Positions 2,089 through 32,000 are shown, counted from the first letter of the stretch. The stretch is DNA of 32,000 nt from Pseudidiomarina andamanensis (GCF_009734345.1 NZ_CP032551.1:1590001-1622000), one strand, 5' to 3'. Numbers and translations: made by a program. The notes: generated by a model from the letters alone, not told the origin.

Positions 2089-2964
2089 TTAGTTTGTCAG
2101 ATAACGAACATGGCCAATGAAGCTTCGCGCCACAGGACCAAGCGTTTCGGCGTCACGGAAATTCAAGTAAAAATTCGTGGTGCGAGTGCCGCCACGGGTA
2201 AGTTGAATAGGCACTAATAAGCCATATTGCAAGGCATTCGCAATGGCACGACGCGGCAGCCACGCAAAGCCTAGGTTTTTCTGTATCAACTCAATAGAAG
2301 TTGCTAAATGGCTCACCGTCCAGCGCTGTTCCGAGCCAAGCCAGCCAATATCCGTTTTCTTCTCAATGCCTGAGTCACGCAACACAATTTGCCGATAATG
2401 TTTCAGATCTTCAGGCGAGACATTTTTCTTCTGCGAAAGGGGATGTTCTGCACCGCAAACCGCCATAAACTCCAACTGACATAAATCTTCGCTAAGCTCG
2501 TTGGCCAAGGTAAATGGCGATAAGGCAATTTCAGCCGTCCCTTTATTTAGGAGCTCATTGGCGCCAGTTAAAATGGTTTCAATCACTTCTAAATGCACAA
2601 TTGGATATTCATTCGAGACTTCCGCGAGTGCTTGGTACAAAACGTCTTTCGGAAAGGCTTCATCGACAGCTATCGCTAGCTTTGACTCAACACCTTGCTT
2701 AAGATTTTGGGCAACGTTTTCAAGTCGTTCAGTTTCAGCGAGTAAGTAATTAATACGCCGAAGGAGCTGCTGGCCGGCATGAGTAACAAAGGTTTTGCGC
2801 CCCTGCACCTCAATGAGTTGCACGCCCAACTGCTCCTCCAATTTATTCACCGCATGGTGCACCGTCGATTGGCTTTTGTGTACGTGGTCGGCGGCCTGTT
2901 GAAAGCCACCAAAATCTGCCACTGCTTTAAACATTCGCCATTGTTCGATGGTTGAACGCGCCAT
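2089..2964 (-). CDS. LysR-family transcriptional regulator
   Basis: 291-aa ORF. N-terminal wHTH FQQAADHVHKSQSTVHHAVNKLEEQLGVQL plus a LysR substrate-binding-type C-terminal half. GGAG lies 9 nt upstream of the ATG, and the gene starts 18 nt after doxX, so it is probably co-transcribed. Confidence 0.9.
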   Translation of the reverse strand: MARSTIEQWRMFKAVADFGGFQQAADHVHKSQSTVHHAVNKLEEQLGVQLIEVQGRKTFVTHAGQQLLRRINYLLAETERLENVAQNLKQGVESKLAIAVDEAFPKDVLYQALAEVSNEYPIVHLEVIETILTGANELLNKGTAEIALSPFTLANELSEDLCQLEFMAVCGAEHPLSQKKNVSPEDLKHYRQIVLRDSGIEKKTDIGWLGSEQRWTVSHLATSIELIQKNLGFAWLPRRAIANALQYGLLVPIQLTRGGTRTTNFYLNFRDAETLGPVARSFIGHVRYLTN

Positions 2965-8370: not shown

Positions 8371-9141
8371 CTACTTCGTACGAATATAACGACTCAGATG
8401 ATACGCGCTCATATGAACTTCGTCATCTCGGAGTTGCTGCCGACCATTGGCCAAATAATTCGGGATGACTTGAGGGTTCAATACCGCTATTTCGGCCGAG
8501 CGACCTAAATCCGTTGTTTTCACATACCACCCAGGAAAAACCACGATACCTTTTACCGGCAGCCGCTTACCGGTGCTTTCAAAAAGTAATTTATGTAGCC
8601 ATGCGCTTGCGGCTTTAACTTGGGTAATAGCGTCTGATTGCAATGGCTTACCGCCACGCAATATTTGTTTGCCATTGTAAAATAATACCGACTTGGAATT
8701 GCTCGATTTCGACATAGTTTTCGTTTCAATCACGAACACACCAGAGCGGTGAATCACGACATGATCGAGGTTAAAGTTTTCACCTTCAATATCGTGAAAT
8801 ACTTGCGCACCATCCAAACGAAGCCGCTCAAGAAATTGACCTACCGCTTTTTCGCCGTCGCGGCCGAGTTTGATTTTATTTGTTTCTTTAAAGGCTTTTG
8901 CAAGACGAACGCCAAAGAAAATCGCTGCAACACCACAAATAACAGAAATTGTGACTGCGTCAGGCTTTGCATCACTAAGTGCATATATCCACGAAAAGGT
9001 AACTGCCAGAAAAAGGATAATTAAAACCATAAAATTGAAAATTACGCCGTCTAAAGCGACATCGATTAGACGCCGATCAAGTGATTCACCAGGATTTCTC
9101 AGGGGCTTATCTTTGAGGGGTGAAATTTTCTGACTTTTCAT
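8371..9141 (-). CDS. Membrane-anchored NERD (nuclease-related) domain protein
   Basis: 256-aa ORF with two N-terminal TM segments. NERD-type core GRDGEKAVGQFLERL...GAQVFHDI...NLDHVVIHRSGVFVIETKT. Its TAG stop overlaps the SD of the cytochrome c gene. Confidence 0.8.
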   Translation of the reverse strand: MKSQKISPLKDKPLRNPGESLDRRLIDVALDGVIFNFMVLIILFLAVTFSWIYALSDAKPDAVTISVICGVAAIFFGVRLAKAFKETNKIKLGRDGEKAVGQFLERLRLDGAQVFHDIEGENFNLDHVVIHRSGVFVIETKTMSKSSNSKSVLFYNGKQILRGGKPLQSDAITQVKAASAWLHKLLFESTGKRLPVKGIVVFPGWYVKTTDLGRSAEIAVLNPQVIPNYLANGRQQLRDDEVHMSAYHLSRYIRTK

Positions 9142-10019: not shown

Positions 10020-11642
10020 ATGAAAACAACAAAAATACTTGGCTCATTGAGCCTCATCAGCCTTTCTGCTTTATTCTCGCCTTCAAGTTATAGTTCCGAT
10101 GTATTGGTTTCAGCCGATTTTAATGTCGGGCAAGGCTTTAATTATTTGGTTAACGGCACCTGCTATGTGGTGACACCGAAACACGTCATGGGCGACGCCA
10201 CTACTGCGAATATTATGCTACCAACTCGGCAGTACTTCACCGCAGACTTAGCACATGTATTTGATGTCGACATGGCAGTTCTTGAATCGAACATTCCTGA
10301 GGCGCAATGTAATCGAAATACATTTTTACAGGTCAGCGATTTAAAGAAGCTCTTGGAAGTTTATCAAACAGGTGTTCTCAAAACGCGTTTGGCTGATGGC
10401 AGTGTATTGCAATCGAAAATCGTGATTAATACCGTAGATGAAACAGAGTACCTAGCGATAAAACCCGAACGTGCAGACGAGCCATTCAAGCAGGGTTATA
10501 GCGGCAGCATTTTGTTTGTGGCAGAACAGGCTGCGGGTGTATTACTTGAAGTGGATGATGAAGGCGGTGTGGTTTATCGGGCAGATGCACTGACAGGTAT
10601 GCTGGATGAACATTTTGGTGTTAACGACGAGCCTGAGGCAACAGAAACAGCGACTACTGAAGAGACAAACGCAGATGATTCAGCGGTAACCACGAATTCG
10701 CATTTGACAGGTCGGTTAGCGAAAAACCAAATTAAAGATCATGAAGTGAAAATGCTGGAAAATAGTCCGGTCGAGTTTGTATTGAAGGCTACTGAAGGCA
10801 ATCAGATGCAATTCTCAATCCTGATTATGGATCGTCGTGAAAATAAGCTTCTCGATTACAAATTTTATAGTACTAACGACTATAACTTTGCGTTTACACC
10901 ACCTAAGTCAGATACATATATTGTTCGACTTTTAGGGGTAAGTTCATTTGGTGAATTCGATATTAAGCTTAATGATTTTGCATTCGATGCAGAGCTTCGT
11001 GGCGACGGTAATAGTTTTCAGATACCGACCACAATAACGCCAAAAGTTGCGAAGGATTCCATAGCCGAATATAGATTTAATGGTGAAACTAACAGTCCCA
11101 TAGAGATGTTGTTTAATGAGGTTAACGGGCAACAGTTTAGATATGCTGCGCATATATTGAATAGCGCCGATGAAGTGCTCCGAGAATATGAGTTTTACTC
11201 TACAAATAGTTACGCCTATGCATTCACGCCGCCAACAAACGACGAATATACTTTGAGACTTTTTGGCACTCGTCATTACGGTACAACCAATATCGGCATT
11301 ACGCAGTGGGTAACTGATGCTGAACTCAAGGGTGCGCAGAACGTTGTCGTTGCCGGTGAAATGATGACCGGAAAACTTGCATATAACGCAGTTGCAGAAT
11401 ATCGAATGATGATGAAAGCAAACGCACCGATCGACTTCAAATTTGAACCGAACTCAGGCGATATGAGATATCGTCTCGAGATTTTTGATGAAACCGGTGA
11501 AAGAAAATACAGCGATGAGTTTTATACAAATAACGAATATCGTATTGTGTTTACCCCATTATCTTCCGACGTACACCTTATTCGTTTAACCGGAATAAAA
11601 AGTCATGGTAACTACACCATTAAGTTGTTTGACTATGATTAA
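10020..11642 (+). CDS. Secreted chymotrypsin-fold (Trypsin_2-like) serine peptidase with an acidic linker and three 110-aa PPC-like repeats
   Basis: 540-aa ORF with signal-like N-terminus MKTTKILGSLSLISLSALFS. Ordered triad contexts: CYVVTPKHV (His55, 10182-10184), DVDMAVLE (Asp84, 10269-10271) and GYSGSILF (Ser161, 10500-10502). Thr/Glu/Asp-rich linker, then three repeats. Confidence 0.7.
   Translation: MKTTKILGSLSLISLSALFSPSSYSSDVLVSADFNVGQGFNYLVNGTCYVVTPKHVMGDATTANIMLPTRQYFTADLAHVFDVDMAVLESNIPEAQCNRNTFLQVSDLKKLLEVYQTGVLKTRLADGSVLQSKIVINTVDETEYLAIKPERADEPFKQGYSGSILFVAEQAAGVLLEVDDEGGVVYRADALTGMLDEHFGVNDEPEATETATTEETNADDSAVTTNSHLTGRLAKNQIKDHEVKMLENSPVEFVLKATEGNQMQFSILIMDRRENKLLDYKFYSTNDYNFAFTPPKSDTYIVRLLGVSSFGEFDIKLNDFAFDAELRGDGNSFQIPTTITPKVAKDSIAEYRFNGETNSPIEMLFNEVNGQQFRYAAHILNSADEVLREYEFYSTNSYAYAFTPPTNDEYTLRLFGTRHYGTTNIGITQWVTDAELKGAQNVVVAGEMMTGKLAYNAVAEYRMMMKANAPIDFKFEPNSGDMRYRLEIFDETGERKYSDEFYTNNEYRIVFTPLSSDVHLIRLTGIKSHGNYTIKLFDYD
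10707..11639 (+). repeat. Three tandem protein-level repeats with an exact 110-aa period (starting at residues 230, 340 and 450) inside the 10020 gene
   Basis: Aligned anchors: TGRLAKNQIKDH / TPKVAKDSIAEY / TGKLAYNAVAEY; NSPVEF / NSPIEM / NAPIDF; FYSTNDYNFAFTPP / FYSTNSYAYAFTPP / FYTNNEYRIVFTPL; YIVRLLG / YTLRLFG / HLIRLTG. The nucleotide sequences are strongly diverged. Confidence 0.75.
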
Positions 11643-12309
11643 ACGTCTAGCTGCGGTTGCTGTACTTGTTGCTAGCTTGGGTTTGGCGCAAGCGAATCAG
11701 GTGAGTGAGTTTACCGAGTCATATAGCGAAACGGTGAAGGTGTCTGGGCAATTTTTGAAAGGGTTACAGTTCACCGATGTGGATTATGCCGTTGCGCCTC
11801 ACCTTTACTTTCCAAGTGTTTATCAGGGGCCGGTTTGTATTTATGTCAGTAGCGCAGATGGTCGATACAAATCGCAATATCAATATACCTTGACTGAACC
11901 CACGGAAGGATTAGTCAGTATTGAGTTCCCCACACAGTATATTAATGAACTAGAAGAGTTTTCGCCTGGCGAATTAGGCTTGCTCGCAAACGCACAACAA
12001 GATTGTTCATCATTAAACGGTAACTATTTAGTGGGTTCTTGGGGAATGCCAAAATCCATGACGAATATCGCCGTATTTCTTCGTAGTAATGCTCGTCGGG
12101 ATGTAGCAACCATTTTTGGTCGTGATGATGGCGAAAATAAGACCGCACCCATCACGGTAAAATGCCAAGATCTACGAAGTAATTATCGCGTTTCTTACGA
12201 CAAAGAATGCGTGTTACAGGGTGTTAATACCAATCAGATGACACGAGTGGTTATTAAACGTCGAAACTTACGCGCAATGCCAGATGAAGTGGTTGAGTTA
12301 TTTCAATGA
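11635..12309 (+). CDS. Hypothetical secreted protein with four cysteines
   Basis: The ORF track starts at 11605. I prefer the in-frame ATG at 11635, which gives a canonical Sec signal MIKRLAAVAVLVASLGLAQA-NQ and overlaps the upstream stop (ATGATTAA). I recognise no family. Confidence 0.65.
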   Translation: MIKRLAAVAVLVASLGLAQANQVSEFTESYSETVKVSGQFLKGLQFTDVDYAVAPHLYFPSVYQGPVCIYVSSADGRYKSQYQYTLTEPTEGLVSIEFPTQYINELEEFSPGELGLLANAQQDCSSLNGNYLVGSWGMPKSMTNIAVFLRSNARRDVATIFGRDDGENKTAPITVKCQDLRSNYRVSYDKECVLQGVNTNQMTRVVIKRRNLRAMPDEVVELFQ

Positions 12310-13250
12310 AACCACTCAATTTCAAAACATTATTCCGTAAAACCGCAAAATTTTTATTCGGAATTTTTCTCACTAACGAAGATTTACCTTATTCCGCAAC
12401 TGAGTTTCGTGACCGTATCGCGCAAAGCTCACTGCGTTGGCTATTGCATATTTTAGTGGGATTATTTTGGCTGCTATTAGCCTACATTGTTTTCATTTCT
12501 CTTCGGTTTATCAGTACCCCCGATACGCTCTACAACGTTACAGCACGTTCCGAAATTATTGCCATTGATTCATTCCAAAATAGTGCATTTGTTCCGTGGC
12601 AACTTGAAGGCGTTACACGTTATGCACAATGTGGCAGCGAAACGTCTCTTGTATCTGGACAACTTCAAGTAGCACAGGATACGTCGGTGTATATTGAGCG
12701 AATTGGGACGGATTCTGTGTGGATAACCTTAAGCTCAGCAACGCTAGCACCCGTAGGCTTTATACAAACTCGTAACGAGCGTATTGAATTAAGTGATTGT
12801 GAAGCTTTTGAGTTACAGGCTTCGGCAAACAACAGTTATACGCTGCCTATAGATGGCGTCATGACCATTGGCGGTGAAGTAAAAGAAGCATCAGCGCGTG
12901 AGCCTATACTGCATCGAGGTTCTGTCGCAATTTCTGATAAAGGCGCTTGGTCGGGTCAATATTATCAAACCGAGCCATATGCACTTGAATTAGGCGATAA
13001 GTTTTTTATTCAGAACCCGTCTATTCAAAGCTCTGGATTTATTTATGTTGATGATTCGCCGGGTATGCAGATTACATTCAATGGAAAAGGCGACGCCGGT
13101 GTTATTCAACGCTATAAATCTGAAGATATTATTCTAAAGAATAGTATTTGGACGAAATTAGCCCACGACGAGAGTTTGTTGTTTCTCTGGCTATTTCTCG
13201 TTGCTGCCTTTTCGCTCCTGAAATTTGTTATTCGGGTGAATATTGAATAG
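12306..13250 (+). CDS. Hypothetical membrane protein: N-proximal TM, about 230-aa extracytoplasmic beta-rich domain, C-terminal TM
   Basis: 314-aa ORF with an ATGA overlap onto the upstream gene. TM segments WLLHILVGLFWLLLAYIVFISL and LLFLWLFLVAAFSLLKFVI. Two Cys in the central domain. I recognise no family. Confidence 0.7.
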   Translation: MKPLNFKTLFRKTAKFLFGIFLTNEDLPYSATEFRDRIAQSSLRWLLHILVGLFWLLLAYIVFISLRFISTPDTLYNVTARSEIIAIDSFQNSAFVPWQLEGVTRYAQCGSETSLVSGQLQVAQDTSVYIERIGTDSVWITLSSATLAPVGFIQTRNERIELSDCEAFELQASANNSYTLPIDGVMTIGGEVKEASAREPILHRGSVAISDKGAWSGQYYQTEPYALELGDKFFIQNPSIQSSGFIYVDDSPGMQITFNGKGDAGVIQRYKSEDIILKNSIWTKLAHDESLLFLWLFLVAAFSLLKFVIRVNIE

Positions 13251-16518: not shown

Positions 16519-18936
16519 TTAATGCTTATAACGGCGAGGGGTTTCGCCGGGCTCGGGGAGTTGGAATATATAGAGCCAGTCATTGCCAACAAGCTGTTGA
16601 AGTATTTCATGCTCGGCGACAATCGCAGCGATGCGCTCCATTGGGGCATCAATGTACACGCTCAGGCGCAGTGGCTCGTGACGATATTGCTGGCCGTCGT
16701 GAATCGATTGCCAGGCGAGGCCGATACGTAAGTCACCACCATTACCTTCAAACACACCCAAGCGGCCGCCCACCACGTTGTGCAGGGTTTTATTGCCGCT
16801 GCCGAAACGCTGATTATCCACCGTCGAGCCGAAATACTGCAGATTAATCCAATTCGTCACAATCATTGGCGCCGTCATAATTTGCGTAAGCACAGCACCG
16901 TCGGCATCTTGCTCAGGGTGATAATCATGCAAGAAGCTCCGCCCTGCTAAACAGAGCCCGCGGGTACGCTCACGCGGCGCAATCACAAATGCCGCATTAT
17001 TGGTTAAGCCCCACTCTGGGCGAGTCTGCGACCAGTCATAAGCGCGACGAACAAACGCTGAACGACGTTTATCAAGGCTCGCCTCGACAAGCTCCAAACC
17101 TAAAGTTGGTGCTCGCTCTAGTCGTGCTGCATCACTGGCGCGCGCCAAGTGCAGCTCAACTTGTGCCAACTGCGATTGCCAACTGGCCGGCACCGCATTA
17201 GCTTCATACAAGGTCACATCTTCTGTGGTGGTATTGTGCAAAGCTGCCATAAAATAGGTGGTTTTTGGAATGATAATGCCACGCTCGACCAAGCCGCGAC
17301 GAATCTCTTTATGATTCAACAACTGTGCTAATGCGCGGGCGTTCACTTCGCCGGTTTGGCCACAACACGCGCCACAATCCAAACCTGCCCGCTGCGGATT
17401 ATTCTGGCTAGTACTGCCGTGCCCTACCAACAAAACCAATGGTGCAAAACCTGATGTCAGGCCCATACCCGTCAACACGCCAGCAGCAAGATCCACACGC
17501 GCTGGCAGAACTTCGGCATCCACGCTCAAAGTCGGGCGTAACGAACAGCTGTCGTCTTCCGAAAGTCCGAGATTATCAATGCCGTTATTATCTGCTTTAA
17601 AGAAGCTCGCCTTCAGTAACTTACCTAAGTACCCCATGCCCAGCGTTTCCACCAAGCTAAATGACGAAGCTGGTACATTACTAAACGGCCACAAACTGGC
17701 TTTTTCTTGTAATTTCACGCGACGAATCGTTGCTAGCTCGACATCTTTCGAAGCATCACCGCTGCTATCGGTCACATTCAAACTCGGTGCCAACAAGCCC
17801 GGCAACTGCGCACGAGTGCTCTGTGTACCCAACGGGGTATAATCAATTGGCAGCCCGAAGAACCCAGCAAAACCGCCAGTGCGAATACCGTCAGATTGCG
17901 CTTCAAAGTGACGGCGAAACACTTCTGAGCGCACATCAATACAGAAATATGCTTGTACTTCTGGCGTATCGGAAGCATTCAACGGCTTCTGCATCAACAC
18001 CTGCGCCAGCTGTTCCTGATAAGCCATTTCATGCGCGCGCTGCCACACCAGCAATTTGCTGCGTGACAAGGAATCATAATCACCGATTTTGTCCCACAGT
18101 GCGCGCCAACGCACCCAAACGCTGTCGTCTTCGCGACCGCCACTGTCAACCAACCATTCCCAGCTTGCGCGAATCGCCAGTAACTCCATCAACGAGGTAT
18201 CGGTTTCGCCGCGCAAGTTCGCTTGCCACGCGCGATACGAGCAGGCTGCCGCCCACCCACTCACACGCATGAGAACGGTTTCCAGCCATAAATCCCATTG
18301 TTCTGGTGGGATATTTAACGACTGCAGAACCTGCGTGAGTTGCTCAATCGGGTCGCTGTGCATGGCATCAGCACGCGCAATCAAATCATCGCTATGCATT
18401 AATACGCGAACGCTACGGTCATGGCGAATTTCATTCAACCAGCTTGCATATAGCGGTGAATCTTTATGTGGGTGCCACGCCGCTTGATATTCATCAAAAT
18501 AAGCCGCGCAAAATTGCGAGACTTGAAACGTCACCGTCTCATGCCAGCCTGGCTCATGACTTAAGTCGCGGGTTTTATCGTAGCAATCACTCAAAAGCGG
18601 TAGCGCCAGCGGTTTATAATTTTTGCCGCCTACAAAGCTGACCAAATGAGTCATCGAATGCTCAGAGCTCAGTTCATCCATGGCTTGTTGCAAATGCGAT
18701 TCTTGAATCACGCCATCTTGCCAAAGCTGCGCGTAGTAGTCGTTACGCATTGAAAGCGGTGATGCAGCCGTAAGCTCAAGTAACTTGGCTGCTTTAGAAA
18801 ACGGTTGATGCGACCGCCCCCAATATGGGTTCACCGCAATCATTTGATCTAACGGCCACGCCGGAGCAATATGCGCGCATGCCGCTGCAATAGCTGTTTC
18901 TACTTGGGCTCGTAAATCGTTTTGCACCTGACTCAT
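16519..18936 (-). CDS. dabA: DabA (DUF2309/MpsB-type) subunit of a DAB inorganic-carbon pump
   Basis: 805-aa ORF. Beta-carbonic-anhydrase-like ligand motifs FCIDVRSE (Cys332 at 17941-17943, Asp334, Arg336) and VGHGSTSQNNPQRAGLDCGACCGQ (His506 at 17419-17421, Cys521 at 17374-17376). ATGA overlap with the upstream NuoL-like gene. Confidence 0.85.
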   Translation of the reverse strand: MSQVQNDLRAQVETAIAAACAHIAPAWPLDQMIAVNPYWGRSHQPFSKAAKLLELTAASPLSMRNDYYAQLWQDGVIQESHLQQAMDELSSEHSMTHLVSFVGGKNYKPLALPLLSDCYDKTRDLSHEPGWHETVTFQVSQFCAAYFDEYQAAWHPHKDSPLYASWLNEIRHDRSVRVLMHSDDLIARADAMHSDPIEQLTQVLQSLNIPPEQWDLWLETVLMRVSGWAAACSYRAWQANLRGETDTSLMELLAIRASWEWLVDSGGREDDSVWVRWRALWDKIGDYDSLSRSKLLVWQRAHEMAYQEQLAQVLMQKPLNASDTPEVQAYFCIDVRSEVFRRHFEAQSDGIRTGGFAGFFGLPIDYTPLGTQSTRAQLPGLLAPSLNVTDSSGDASKDVELATIRRVKLQEKASLWPFSNVPASSFSLVETLGMGYLGKLLKASFFKADNNGIDNLGLSEDDSCSLRPTLSVDAEVLPARVDLAAGVLTGMGLTSGFAPLVLLVGHGSTSQNNPQRAGLDCGACCGQTGEVNARALAQLLNHKEIRRGLVERGIIIPKTTYFMAALHNTTTEDVTLYEANAVPASWQSQLAQVELHLARASDAARLERAPTLGLELVEASLDKRRSAFVRRAYDWSQTRPEWGLTNNAAFVIAPRERTRGLCLAGRSFLHDYHPEQDADGAVLTQIMTAPMIVTNWINLQYFGSTVDNQRFGSGNKTLHNVVGGRLGVFEGNGGDLRIGLAWQSIHDGQQYRHEPLRLSVYIDAPMERIAAIVAEHEILQQLVGNDWLYIFQLPEPGETPRRYKH

Positions 18937-20450
18937 GAAATTATCTCCTTCGAAGCATCCGTTTGAGCCGGCGGCAATGGCCAGATCTTAAAGGTTATCA
19001 AGGTAAAACGTTCATCGAGGTAAAAACCGTTGTAGGCCCATGGGTATAAACGACGCGACCATTTGTGCTGCGGATACAATTGAACCAAGAGTTGTAAACC
19101 AAACAACGCCACAAACACGAAGGCCACCCAAACAACTAACGCAATGTGTGTATCGCCCTGACTTGGTACCGCGGCGGCAAATAGTAAATGCCAAATAAAA
19201 TACAGCTGGGTCAACATGAACACACGCAGTAAACCGAGTCGGAAAAGCTTCGCCGTCATATCGCGCTGCGGCCACAGGAGTGGCGCAAAACCAATGGTGA
19301 GAATAATCAGCGCCACCCAACTCACGTGAAACTGCGGTAGCACCCACTGCCACACCACAAACGACACGCCAATGACTGCGGCGCTAAACAATGGGCTTAA
19401 TACATACAAATTTTTACGCGTCACACTATAAGCCGGGTCCAACAAACGTTGTAGCCGAGCCTGTTCAACAGCCTCACCGGCGCTCAAGAACGCGTAGGCC
19501 TTGTAAAGCGAATGAGCCACCAAATGCAACAGCGCCAGCTCATATAAGCCCAGGCCAATTTCCATAAGCATAAAGCCCATCTGCGCGCAGGTAGACCAAG
19601 CCAACCGTACCTTAATACTGATTCGAGTCAGCATGACTAAAGCTGCAAGCGCCGCTGATAAGCTCCCCACAACCACCAACAAAGCTTGGGCAATGTCGCT
19701 TTGCGCCAGCATCGGTGCCATGCGCAATAACACAAATCCAGACAAGTTAACGACACCGGCATGTAGCAACGCTGAAATCGGTGTTGGCGCCTCCATGACT
19801 TGAATGAGCCAACCGTGCAATGGTAACTGCGCGGTTTTCAAAATTGCCGCCAGCGCGACCAGCACAATTGTCAGTTCAAGCCAAATAGACAGCTCGGAAA
19901 ACTCGGTAACATGCGTATTAATCTCCGCAAGATTCAGCGAGCCAACGTCGATATAAGTGAACGTGACCGCCATTAACAACAACACGTCAGCAAGGCGGCT
20001 AATAATGAATTTCTTGTGTGAGACAATTTGCGCAGCGCGACGCTGATGATAGAACAACAGTAACTTATGCAGCCCCACACTCGTCAACGACCAGCCAAGC
20101 AACATCAATAGTAAGTGGTCACTAACAACAATCAAGCCGACGTTGGCCAGGGTGAATAACGTGAACTGAATAAACATGATTTGGTTGGGCTCACCCTGCA
20201 AATAGTGCTTCGCAAAGCGTGTAACCACCCAACCCAAAATGGCAACAAGAACAATCACGACCAGCCCGACCCGATCAGCCGGTGCGGCACTAAACGCTGA
20301 AAAGAGCACTAACATCACTGCGCACAACAATGCGCTTAGTGAGGTGAGCTTGGCAACTTGCCATAGCATTCGTGGCGGCGCGACCAAGCTAGCGAGCCAG
20401 CCAATCAACCAAACAGCGGCAAAGGGCCATGTTTCAAGCATGTGATTCAT
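18933..20450 (-). CDS. dabB: DabB (MpsA/NuoL-like proton-conducting membrane transporter) subunit
   Basis: 505-aa polytopic ORF (about 12-13 TM) with an NADH dehydrogenase subunit 5/Mrp antiporter-like core: LLHAGVVNLSGFVLLR, MGFMLMEIGLG and HLVAHSLYKAYAFL. Stop TGA overlaps the dabA ATG. Confidence 0.85.
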   Translation of the reverse strand: MNHMLETWPFAAVWLIGWLASLVAPPRMLWQVAKLTSLSALLCAVMLVLFSAFSAAPADRVGLVVIVLVAILGWVVTRFAKHYLQGEPNQIMFIQFTLFTLANVGLIVVSDHLLLMLLGWSLTSVGLHKLLLFYHQRRAAQIVSHKKFIISRLADVLLLMAVTFTYIDVGSLNLAEINTHVTEFSELSIWLELTIVLVALAAILKTAQLPLHGWLIQVMEAPTPISALLHAGVVNLSGFVLLRMAPMLAQSDIAQALLVVVGSLSAALAALVMLTRISIKVRLAWSTCAQMGFMLMEIGLGLYELALLHLVAHSLYKAYAFLSAGEAVEQARLQRLLDPAYSVTRKNLYVLSPLFSAAVIGVSFVVWQWVLPQFHVSWVALIILTIGFAPLLWPQRDMTAKLFRLGLLRVFMLTQLYFIWHLLFAAAVPSQGDTHIALVVWVAFVFVALFGLQLLVQLYPQHKWSRRLYPWAYNGFYLDERFTLITFKIWPLPPAQTDASKEIIS

Positions 20451-20586
20451 CCATATGACGTAACTATTGTTATGTTAGTGTGCATGTTGCCAAAAAGCAT
20501 ACCTTCAGTAAAATAGATATAAAATATACAACCGTTCTGTTTTTACGAACATTTTACCGAGCAAACACCATTGAGGTGCTCCGACC

Positions 20587-21456
20587 ATGCGTGAACTCAA
20601 CTTTCATCACCTATTTTATTTTTGGACGGTCGCCAAAGAAGGCCACTTAACCCGCGCCGCACAGCAACTGCATGTATCGCAATCGGCCCTCTCATCACAA
20701 ATTAAGCAATTGGAAGAACGCCTTGGCCAAGATTTGTTTGTGCGCGAAGGTCGTAGCCTCAAACTCACCGAATTCGGGCATGTGGTGCTCAACTATGCCG
20801 AGCGGATTTTCAATTTAAGCCAAGAAATGATGTCGATGGTCGAGCGCGGTGATACGCACGTGGTTCAAACTTTTCGGGTTGGCGCCGTTGCAACGCTTTC
20901 TCGTAACTTCCAAGAGAATTTCTTACGCCCGATTTTGGGTAATCCGAACATTCAACTAACGTTACTTTCAGCAAGTCTTGAACAGTTGCTTGAGCAATTG
21001 AGTATGCATAAGCTCGATTTAATCCTCTCCAACCGAGCGGTTGCGTCAGATTTTCATTTACCGATTCGCTGCCAGTGCGTCGCCCAACAAAGTGTCAGCC
21101 TGATTGGGCCCAACAGTGACGCATTAAAGGATAGAGAGTTTCCGCGTGATTTAGACAAAGTACCGGTGTTGGTACCTGGCGTAAGTAGTGATATTCGCAC
21201 CCAATTTGACATGTATTGTGAAGAAAACAACCTGCAAATTACACCCTATGCCGAAGTCGACGACATGGCGATGTTGCGTGTGATGTCGCGGAGTATTCAA
21301 GGCGTGACCGTAGTTCCTGAAGTTGTCGTGCAGGACGAACTGCGCGCCGGTGTACTAAAAAAATACTGCATGCTCGAAGGCGTGGTCGAAAAATTTTATG
21401 CCATCACCGCCAAACGCGAGTTTGAATCGACCTTGCTCAGCACGTTACTGAGTTAA
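20587..21456 (+). CDS. LysR-family regulator of the NhaR-like subtype, divergent from dabBA
   Basis: 289-aa ORF. The N-terminus NFHHLFYFWTVAKEGHLTRAAQQLHVSQSALSSQIKQLEERLG and the blocks LSQEM and LLEQLSMHKLDLILS parallel my recollection of E. coli NhaR (NYNHLYYFWHV..., LSQEM, LLEQLSQHKLDMIIS). Confidence 0.85.
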   Translation: MRELNFHHLFYFWTVAKEGHLTRAAQQLHVSQSALSSQIKQLEERLGQDLFVREGRSLKLTEFGHVVLNYAERIFNLSQEMMSMVERGDTHVVQTFRVGAVATLSRNFQENFLRPILGNPNIQLTLLSASLEQLLEQLSMHKLDLILSNRAVASDFHLPIRCQCVAQQSVSLIGPNSDALKDREFPRDLDKVPVLVPGVSSDIRTQFDMYCEENNLQITPYAEVDDMAMLRVMSRSIQGVTVVPEVVVQDELRAGVLKKYCMLEGVVEKFYAITAKREFESTLLSTLLS

Positions 21457-31270: not shown

Positions 31271-31400
31271 GGCTGACACTCCAAAACGTTAGGTTGTATT
31301 CGATGTAAGGAGTATACTGTTTCCAAAATAAATGATTAGATAGCAGAAATTAAATTCGTTGTTTCTTTTAGGAAACAATAGATAGTTAAAGGGACTTCTC

Positions 31401-32000
31401 ATGCTGAACCGCTTAGCCGATATGGCCATTTACGCCACCGTAGTTGAGCAACAATCGTTTACTGCCGCAGCTGAGCGCCTTGGCATTTCCAAAGGTGCTG
31501 TGAGTAAAGCGATTAAGAAACTTGAGCAGGAGCTGAATTTAAGACTCTTGCAACGCACCACACGAACCATGGCAGTGACTATTGAAGGCCGCGCGTTTTA
31601 CGAATACTGCCGTGAAATGATGAGCCAGGTTGAAGCCGCCGAGCAGCACTTGGGAAGCTTCCGCAATACACCAAGCGGCTTAATTCGCATCACCGCGCCG
31701 GTAACCTTTGGCAGTGTACAAATCGCCCCATTAATTCCTGAGCTCCTTCAGCAATACCCTGATATCAACATCGACCTATTGCTTGACGACAAACGCGTCG
31801 ATCTCGTCACACAACAGGTGGATATTGCGATTCGCTGTGGTCGACTGGAGAGCTCTTCGTTGATTGCCAAGCGTTTAAATGACTTACCGTTGGTGGTGGT
31901 CGCTACGCCAGAATTTTTAGAAAAGCATGGCGCGCCAGCACACCCGCAAGAACTAACAAACTTTCCCTGTTTGAGTCACAGCTCGCATGTGGTGGATAGG
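31401..32000 (+). CDS. LysR-family transcriptional regulator; 3' end beyond the window
   Basis: Manual translation from ATG 31401 gives MLNRLADMAIYATVVEQQSFTAAAERLGISKGAVSKAIKKLEQELNLRLLQRTTR...IRITAPVTFG..., which stays open to base 32000. Absent from the track because there is no stop in the window. Confidence 0.9.
   Translation, partial: MLNRLADMAIYATVVEQQSFTAAAERLGISKGAVSKAIKKLEQELNLRLLQRTTRTMAVTIEGRAFYEYCREMMSQVEAAEQHLGSFRNTPSGLIRITAPVTFGSVQIAPLIPELLQQYPDINIDLLLDDKRVDLVTQQVDIAIRCGRLESSSLIAKRLNDLPLVVVATPEFLEKHGAPAHPQELTNFPCLSHSSHVVDR

Follow-up and report, generated by a model that had tools for sequence, protein, structure and literature searches.

Introduction

The inorganic carbon pumps of the DAB (MpsAB) family combine a membrane subunit homologous to NuoL and MrpA (DabB) with a cytoplasmic subunit of the DUF2309/YbcC family (DabA), which carries a β-carbonic-anhydrase-like zinc site. 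Here we analyse a dabB-dabA gene pair from the marine heterotroph Pseudidiomarina andamanensis, located at positions 16519-20450 of a 32,000-nucleotide stretch of its genome (GCF_009734345.1, NZ_CP032551.1:1590001-1622000), which we refer to as the window. The closest relative of known structure is DAB2 of Halothiobacillus neapolitanus (PDB 9RD0, 9RD8, 9RD9; 9RD0 is a cryo-electron microscopy structure). It consists of two subunits, DabA2 and DabB2, and serves a chemolithoautotrophic CO2-concentrating mechanism. The DAB1 complexes of Thermocrinis albus and H. neapolitanus are DabABC heterotrimers, which depend on DabC as an additional subunit in the membrane and in which a NNPYESALDCGACGG motif is strictly conserved.

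In Firmicutes, the same two Pfam families make up Staphylococcus aureus MpsAB and Bacillus subtilis NdhF-MpsB (YbcC), with the gene for the membrane subunit coming first. These systems work in a heterotrophic setting, where they provide bicarbonate for carboxylases and are interchangeable with carbonic anhydrase; the supply role has been shown genetically for both. Desmarais and colleagues (2019, Nat Microbiol) reportedly found that the DABs of B. anthracis and V. cholerae are functional. The 2018 discovery preprint noted DabA homologues in heterotrophs that lack RuBisCO and proposed that the bicarbonate is used by biotin carboxylases. Several DAB-bearing heterotrophs also have carbonic anhydrases.

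The DAB family, its mechanism, its occurrence in heterotrophs and even the name of the proteins studied here are already known, and the locus carries little weight as a discovery. It does provide a clean example of a DAB2-type system from a small-genome (2.41 Mb) marine heterotroph, and it defines a testable pair of regulator and putative operator in a system of which the regulation is said to be unexplored.

Family assignment

A preliminary description of the window, made from the sequence alone, had proposed that a NuoL/MrpA-like protein of 505 amino acids is translationally coupled to a DUF2309 protein of 805 amino acids. Both open reading frames (ORFs), their coordinates and the ATGA overlap between them were exact (Table 1), and profile searches bore out both family assignments. 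The 805-residue protein matches PF10070 (DabA/DUF2309) from end to end, with a score of 849.8 bits over profile positions 1-747 of 747. Its best PDB match is H. neapolitanus DabA2 (9rd0_A, E = 1.6e-183, residues 11-805). The 505-residue protein contains 12 strongly hydrophobic segments and matches PF00361 (138 bits) and NCBIfam NF006029 (549.5 bits, cutoff 380). Its best PDB match is DabB2 (9rd0_B, E = 5.3e-68, residues 61-492), at 234 bits versus about 137 bits for NuoL chains (~1e-38), a gap of about 100 bits. The models for genuine NuoL remain below their cutoffs (NF005141, 192 vs 556; TIGR01974, 186 vs 407). The pair is confirmed as a DAB/MpsAB-type pump in a marine heterotroph. Chance does not explain these observations.

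In UniProt, the identical sequences are already entered as 'Probable inorganic carbon transporter subunit DabA/DabB'. There is a systematic misnomer in other records: the 'equivalog' title of NF006029 makes RefSeq/NCBI call DabB a complex I subunit, where UniProt says DabB. Flagging this misnomer is of practical value.

Predicted active site and coupling residues

Residue conservation was judged on alignments of 81 DabA and 73 DabB sequences from related loci. Features beyond the zinc site were taken from two 2026 structural studies and then checked on these family alignments. In a HMMER alignment to 9rd0_A, Cys332, Asp334, Arg336, His506 and Cys521 of the window DabA pair with C351, D353, R355, H524 and C539 of DabA2, where they bind the zinc or form the Asp-Arg dyad. 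These are the five residues that the preliminary description had assigned to a zinc site, and the homology with the DabA site holds. All five are invariant in the 81 sequences, as are S337, A357, E430, H567 and L644. Alanine substitution of the zinc ligands or the dyad of DabA2 abolishes or impairs the rescue of carbonic-anhydrase-free E. coli, and DAB2 function is likewise lost upon mutation of E444 of DabA2, of the proton-path residues of DabB, and of H260 of DabB2. Every residue whose mutation abolishes DAB2 function has its counterpart in the window proteins. By homology, we infer that the two proteins form a complex and that DabA binds zinc.

Beyond the zinc site, L644 is located where DabA2 has L658, a leucine that takes the place of the bicarbonate-stabilising glutamine of ordinary β-carbonic anhydrases. 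E430 is the counterpart of E444 in the membrane finger of DabA2. The lid motif G(I/F)AGFFG is present as 355-GFAGFFG-361 and the link motif DWxxxRPEWGL as 634-DWSQTRPEWGL-644. A second motif, at residues 512-526, reads NNPQRAGLDCGACCG; the YESA positions are substituted, giving the DabA2-type variant. At the named positions the window DabA departs from DabA2 conservatively only, for example in having E572 for D590.

The proton path described for DabB2 is also represented in the window DabB. H230 is the counterpart of the essential H260 and is invariant in the 73 DabB sequences, as is the His/His/Lys set of transmembrane helix 11 (TM11; H309, H313 and K317). K205 and D155 correspond to the K235/D185 ion pair; the former position is Lys in 63 and Arg in 9 of the sequences, and the latter is Glu in 41 and Asp in 32. 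R152 is conserved. The position equivalent to NuoL Glu144 (I151 in DabB2) is Ser in the window DabB and is not acidic in any of the 73 sequences, which fits the 'open-state' adaptation reported for DAB2.

Subunit composition

The subtype was examined by clustering all ORFs of at least 70 amino acids from the 81 related loci. Only three genes recur: those for DabA (81 loci), DabB (77) and a LysR-type regulator (65). The other recurrent clusters are shadow ORFs within these three genes, and no third conserved membrane gene (DabC or MpsC) was found in the 81 loci; a hidden third subunit was rejected on these grounds. The hallmarks of DAB1, DabC and NNPYESALDCGACGG, are both missing from the window locus, where the corresponding DabA motif is NNPQRAGLDCGACCG. 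Since the locus lacks a DabC gene and the window leaves no space for another gene (98 nt 3' of dabA and 136 nt 5' of dabB), the pair is of the DAB2 type and is predicted to form a two-subunit heterodimer. The two-gene arrangement and the heterotrophic setting put forward in the preliminary description both hold.

The comparison with H. neapolitanus DAB2 is close. In addition to two subunits without DabC and a DabA alignment over the full length, the two systems share identical zinc ligands, Asp-Arg dyad, Leu-for-Gln replacement, finger Glu and DabB proton-path residues, and the DabA2-type variant of the second motif (NNPxxxxLDCGACxG). They differ in that the window DabB is shorter at its N-terminus (505 vs 551 residues), in the replacements of DabA2 D590 by E572 and of DabB2 I151 by Ser, and in their setting: P. 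andamanensis is heterotrophic, the window contains neither carboxysome nor RuBisCO genes, and a gene for an NhaR-like LysR is divergent from dabB, whereas no LysR is among the genes named in the figure legend that depicts the DAB2 context. With DAB1 of T. albus and H. neapolitanus, the window system has in common the catalytic chemistry expected from its residues, the lid motif, the DWxxxRPEWGL link and the TM11 His/His/Lys set of DabB. The Firmicute systems resemble it by family and gene order. Their operons contain mpsC or a downstream canC instead of a divergent lysR, and MpsAB is proposed to be Na+-coupled.

In 19 loci of the Halioglobus/Saccharospirillum/Alcanivorax group, a soluble ORF of ~95 amino acids without a Pfam family lies directly 3' of dabA (for example at L009 8489-8776 on the plus strand, L020 8476-8766 and L026 8492-8794). 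Neither the window nor the remaining Pseudidiomarina loci contain it.

Regulator and putative operator

The preliminary description of a two-gene system was incomplete in one respect: it overlooked a divergent LysR-type gene and a putative operator, both of which are conserved parts of the module. The regulator has the HTH_1 and LysR_substrate domains, is divergent from dabB and shares with it a 136-nt spacer containing a candidate T-N11-A dyad, all of which are features expected of a LysR-type regulator that controls a divergent operon. We counted lysR adjacency from tblastn coordinates. Among the 66 related loci with enough upstream sequence, lysR is divergent from dabB in 58, drawn from several phyla; it is elsewhere or in another orientation in three and missing in five. 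In 55 of the 58 loci, LysR is better conserved relative to the window copy than either DabA or DabB, the median identities to the window proteins being 63% for LysR, 52% for DabA and 51% for DabB.

With a score of 182 bits (cutoff 219), NhaR (NF008284) is the best NCBIfam match of the window LysR; the match spans the whole protein, effector domain included. NhaR is also the best match for all of ten orthologues from several phyla, again below the cutoff (114-174 bits). The CbbR-like score of the window protein is only 57 bits. Because the window LysR and all ten orthologues score below the NhaR cutoff, the regulator is, judged by its profile scores, a member of an NhaR-related subfamily of its own, NhaR-like rather than NhaR and not CbbR-like. 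E. coli NhaR is a LysR-type, Na+-responsive activator of nhaA, whereas the gene for the window regulator is paired with dabBA.

Two further LysR-family genes are located at 2089-2964 (minus strand) and 31386-32000 (plus strand) of the window; NhaR similarity was tested for the DAB-linked LysR only. Some genomes have two DAB loci, namely Saccharospirillum impatiens (L021, L075) and one Gemmatimonadales metagenome-assembled genome (L052, L053). In S. impatiens, the copy whose DabA is 52% identical to that of the window has a divergent LysR, and the 41% copy has none.

The association of LysR, a nuoL homologue and ybcC was recorded in 2017 as COGNAT 'clade A' (Klimchuk et al., PMC5700660), with an identical arrangement: ybcC downstream of the nuoL homologue and a reverse LysR gene (COG0583) at the 5' end. 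That paper predates the assignment of a function to the family and proposes an outward ion pump powered by an unknown exergonic reaction; the passages covered here make no mention of an NhaR-like regulator or an operator. The 2017 record has priority for the gene association, and the putative operator and NhaR-like nature of the regulator are a modest addition. Our literature searches found no description of the NhaR-like nature, operator or signal of the regulator. Regulation of the B. subtilis system is described as still to be explored in a 2026 study of that organism.

The spacer between lysR and dabB contains a dyad, GTTCGTAAAAACAGAAC, of the form GTTC-N9-GAAC, which is the sole match to this pattern in the window. 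It is found in 38 of 62 lysR-dabB spacers, and a relaxed form, TTC-N9-GAA, in 56 of 62. The dyad is enriched in the spacers: of 50 GTTC-N9-GAAC sites in 983 kb of loci, 38 are inside 12 kb of spacers. The dyad centre is at a median distance of 104 nt from the dabB start. In three Pseudidiomarina loci (the window, L002 and L003), the dyad is 36-48 nt from the lysR start, as opposed to 5-7 nt in most genera, which implies an insertion of ~30 nt in the lysR leader.

The dyad is followed by another conserved element of the spacer, ATATCTATTTTACTGA, which overlaps TAAAAT, a -10-like hexamer oriented towards lysR. The promoter-like site for dabB, which is statistically indistinguishable from a chance match, lies downstream of the putative operator, a position that fits LysR-type activation. 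LysR binding at the dyad would probably activate dabBA and autoregulate lysR.

Proposed mechanism and role

We favour the explanation that the locus is a module of lysR and divergent dabB-dabA encoding a DAB2-type vectorial carbonic anhydrase that feeds the carboxylases of a heterotroph, and we give this a probability of roughly 0.85. CO2, diffusing into the cell or released by catabolism, would travel along a hydrophobic channel to a Cys2-His zinc site buried in DabA (C332, H506, C521, with the D334-R336 dyad) and be hydrated there. L644 at the glutamine position and the mobile GFAGFFG lid would disfavour rebinding of bicarbonate and the reverse reaction. An inward flow of cations, most likely H+, through DabB (K205, H230, H309/H313/K317) and the DabA finger (E430) would drive the gating or conformational cycle, so that bicarbonate could build up in the cytoplasm above equilibrium. 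In a setting without RuBisCO, the bicarbonate would presumably be passed to acetyl-CoA carboxylase, carbamoyl-phosphate synthetase and anaplerotic carboxylases. The preliminary description had also suggested anaplerotic carboxylation and called this a less-studied role of the family. The genetics of homologues support the role; the work on S. aureus and B. subtilis means that the gap was overstated. Energy-dependent accumulation of inorganic carbon has been demonstrated for homologues, which rescue carbonic-anhydrase-free E. coli in air. No sequence evidence contradicts the molecular function. Weaker points of the favoured explanation are the coupling ion (MpsAB is proposed to be Na+-linked, the host is marine and the regulator is NhaR-like) and the sigma-70 promoter-like matches in the spacer, which are no commoner than in shuffled sequence.

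The alternative that survives best, and which we nevertheless consider unlikely, is a Na+-coupled complex. In line with the proposal made for S. aureus MpsAB, it would either cotransport Na+ and bicarbonate or act as a vectorial carbonic anhydrase driven by Na+ instead of protons. MpsAB, for which sodium-bicarbonate cotransport has been proposed, rescues E. coli deficient in Na+ transporters; a marine host would suit such a system, and the curated family closest to the linked regulator is NhaR, the Na+-responsive activator of nhaA. However, DAB2, the closest solved relative, is Na+-independent and fails to rescue a ΔnhaAB strain, all His, Lys and Glu residues of the proposed proton path are kept in the window proteins, and both structures have a buried CO2-hydrating site without a transmembrane route for bicarbonate. 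No residue signature that discriminates between Na+ and H+ coupling has been published for the DAB family.

Somewhat less probable still is a main role in pH or ion homeostasis or in generating membrane potential, for example by acidifying or buffering the cell interior where the habitat is alkaline and saline. The original description of Mps was of a system that generates membrane potential, and a haloalkaliphilic Halomonas has a DAB for which a function in intracellular pH has been put forward. Hydration of CO2 frees a proton inside the cell, and an NhaR-like regulator would be in keeping with this role. Yet the losses that have been tested give a growth defect that is remedied by CO2 or bicarbonate and complemented by a plain carbonic anhydrase, and the B. 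subtilis ndhF-mpsB promoter shows no significant response to pH. That the 505-residue protein is a genuine complex I NuoL, with the 805-residue protein as an unrelated neighbour, has in its favour the title of NF006029 ('NADH-quinone oxidoreductase subunit L') and the name used in public records, and is refuted by the NuoL models far under their cutoffs, the DabB2 match, the lack of other nuo genes nearby in the window, the UniProt name and the coupling to dabA, with the pairing kept in 77 of 81 loci.

Should the NhaR-like regulator respond to Na+, bicarbonate or pH, this would help to account for the retention by heterotrophs of a CO2 trap that consumes energy, in place of a simple carbonic anhydrase. 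A bolder conjecture, to which we attach only a low probability, is that the NhaR-like LysR, its GTTC-N9-GAAC operator and dabBA together make up a regulon of their own that is horizontally mobile and occurs mainly in heterotrophs, and that the regulator responds to a cation or to pH (Na+, bicarbonate, alkalinity) and not to a Calvin-cycle metabolite. Were this true, the DABs of marine heterotrophs would be switched on for Na+/pH homeostasis or for the recapture of metabolic CO2, and Na+ coupling might occur in this clade, which bears on the dispute between the DAB2 and MpsAB work over H+ versus Na+.

Gene organisation

The features of the locus are listed in Table 1. The overlap of the dabB stop codon with the dabA start codon in ATGA implies translational coupling; the 4-nt overlap (-4) is the commonest junction of the family, being present in 45 related loci. 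The start of dabB is ambiguous, as versions of 505 residues (ATG at 20450) and 502 residues (ATG at 20441) are both in public records. Both candidate starts (20439-20450) are without a strong Shine-Dalgarno sequence, and GGAGG precedes dabB in most other genera.

Table 1. Features of the lysR-dabB-dabA locus, in window coordinates
Feature	Position	Strand	Basis
dabA (mpsB-type, DUF2309/YbcC), cytoplasmic subunit of 805 aa with β-carbonic-anhydrase-like zinc site and predicted membrane-inserting finger	16519-18936	minus	PF10070 and 9rd0_A matches
dabB (mpsA-type), membrane subunit of 505 aa, NuoL/MrpA homologue	18933-20450	minus	PF00361, NF006029 and 9rd0_B matches
ATGA, dabB stop overlapping dabA start	18933-18936	minus	read directly from sequence
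Shine-Dalgarno sequence of dabA, AAGGAG, 8 nt 5' of the ATG	18945-18950	minus	read from sequence
GC-rich hairpin with perfect 13-bp stem, directly 3' of the dabA stop codon	16489-16518	minus	folding versus shuffles
LysR-type regulator, NhaR-like, 289 aa, divergent from dabB	20587-21456	plus	HTH_1 and LysR_substrate domains
Putative LysR operator dyad, GTTCGTAAAAACAGAAC (GTTC-N9-GAAC containing T-N11-A)	20534-20550	no strand	spacer enrichment
Second conserved spacer element, ATATCTATTTTACTGA (family consensus tATaTATTTTacAaAA)	20505-20520	no strand	56 dyad-aligned spacers
Promoter-like site towards lysR, TTGCCA-16-TAAAAT	20487-20514	plus	hexamer match
Promoter-like site for dabB, TTGGCA, 16-nt spacer, AACAAT	20466-20493	minus	9/12 consensus positions only

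A scan for intrinsic terminators in the window did no better than on shuffled sequence. The hairpin that follows dabA has a minimum free energy of -27.1 kcal/mol (z = -5.2), a value equalled by none of 200 shuffles; it lacks a following U-tract and was therefore missed by the terminator scan. It likely marks the end of the operon transcript, or stabilises the transcript. Co-transcription with the downstream phosphodiesterase gene was considered and rejected: that gene adjoins dabA in Pseudidiomarina only, and the strong hairpin lies between the two.

Genomic setting

Judged by DabA, the nearest relatives of the window locus are in P. marina (94% identical) and P. tainanensis (91%), and the flanking genes are syntenic in both. 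Identity then drops to ~54% in mostly marine gammaproteobacteria (Oceanospirillum, Halioglobus, Vibrio ruber, Idiomarina xiamenensis, Saccharospirillum, Alcanivorax, Marinobacter and Kangiella) and to 40-47% in Burkholderiales, Gemmatimonadales, Myxococcota and Acidobacteria. The relatives carrying the locus are mostly marine heterotrophs.

The rest of the window contains ordinary heterotroph genes, encoding a catalase-peroxidase, two diguanylate cyclases, Upp, an S9 peptidase, a DUF885 protein, a TonB-dependent receptor and several regulators. Among the ORFs of at least 120 amino acids and the two end-cut genes of the 32-kb window, none matches carbonic anhydrase, RuBisCO or carboxysome families; the absence of these genes noted in the preliminary description stands for the window, which is as far as the statement reaches. 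Rfam and tRNA scans of the window returned nothing. The GC content of dabA (0.521) and the third-codon-position GC content (GC3) of dabB (0.581) are each about 2.3 standard deviations over the window mean. Recent horizontal transfer, considered on account of base composition, was rejected, as the flanking phosphodiesterase, S9 and LigB genes are similarly raised and the flanks are syntenic in the two closest Pseudidiomarina species.

Elsewhere in the window, three tight, partly overlapping ORFs of 540, 234 and 314 amino acids occupy positions 10020-13250 (plus strand), between upp and a MASE6-GGDEF gene. Searches against Pfam, NCBIfam and PADLOC gave no matches to them. Their GC content is the lowest of the window (0.41-0.43, GC3 0.35-0.39, compared with means of 0.46 and 0.455), and a gene for a NERD-domain protein lies nearby at 8371-9141. 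The three ORFs may be an acquired island.

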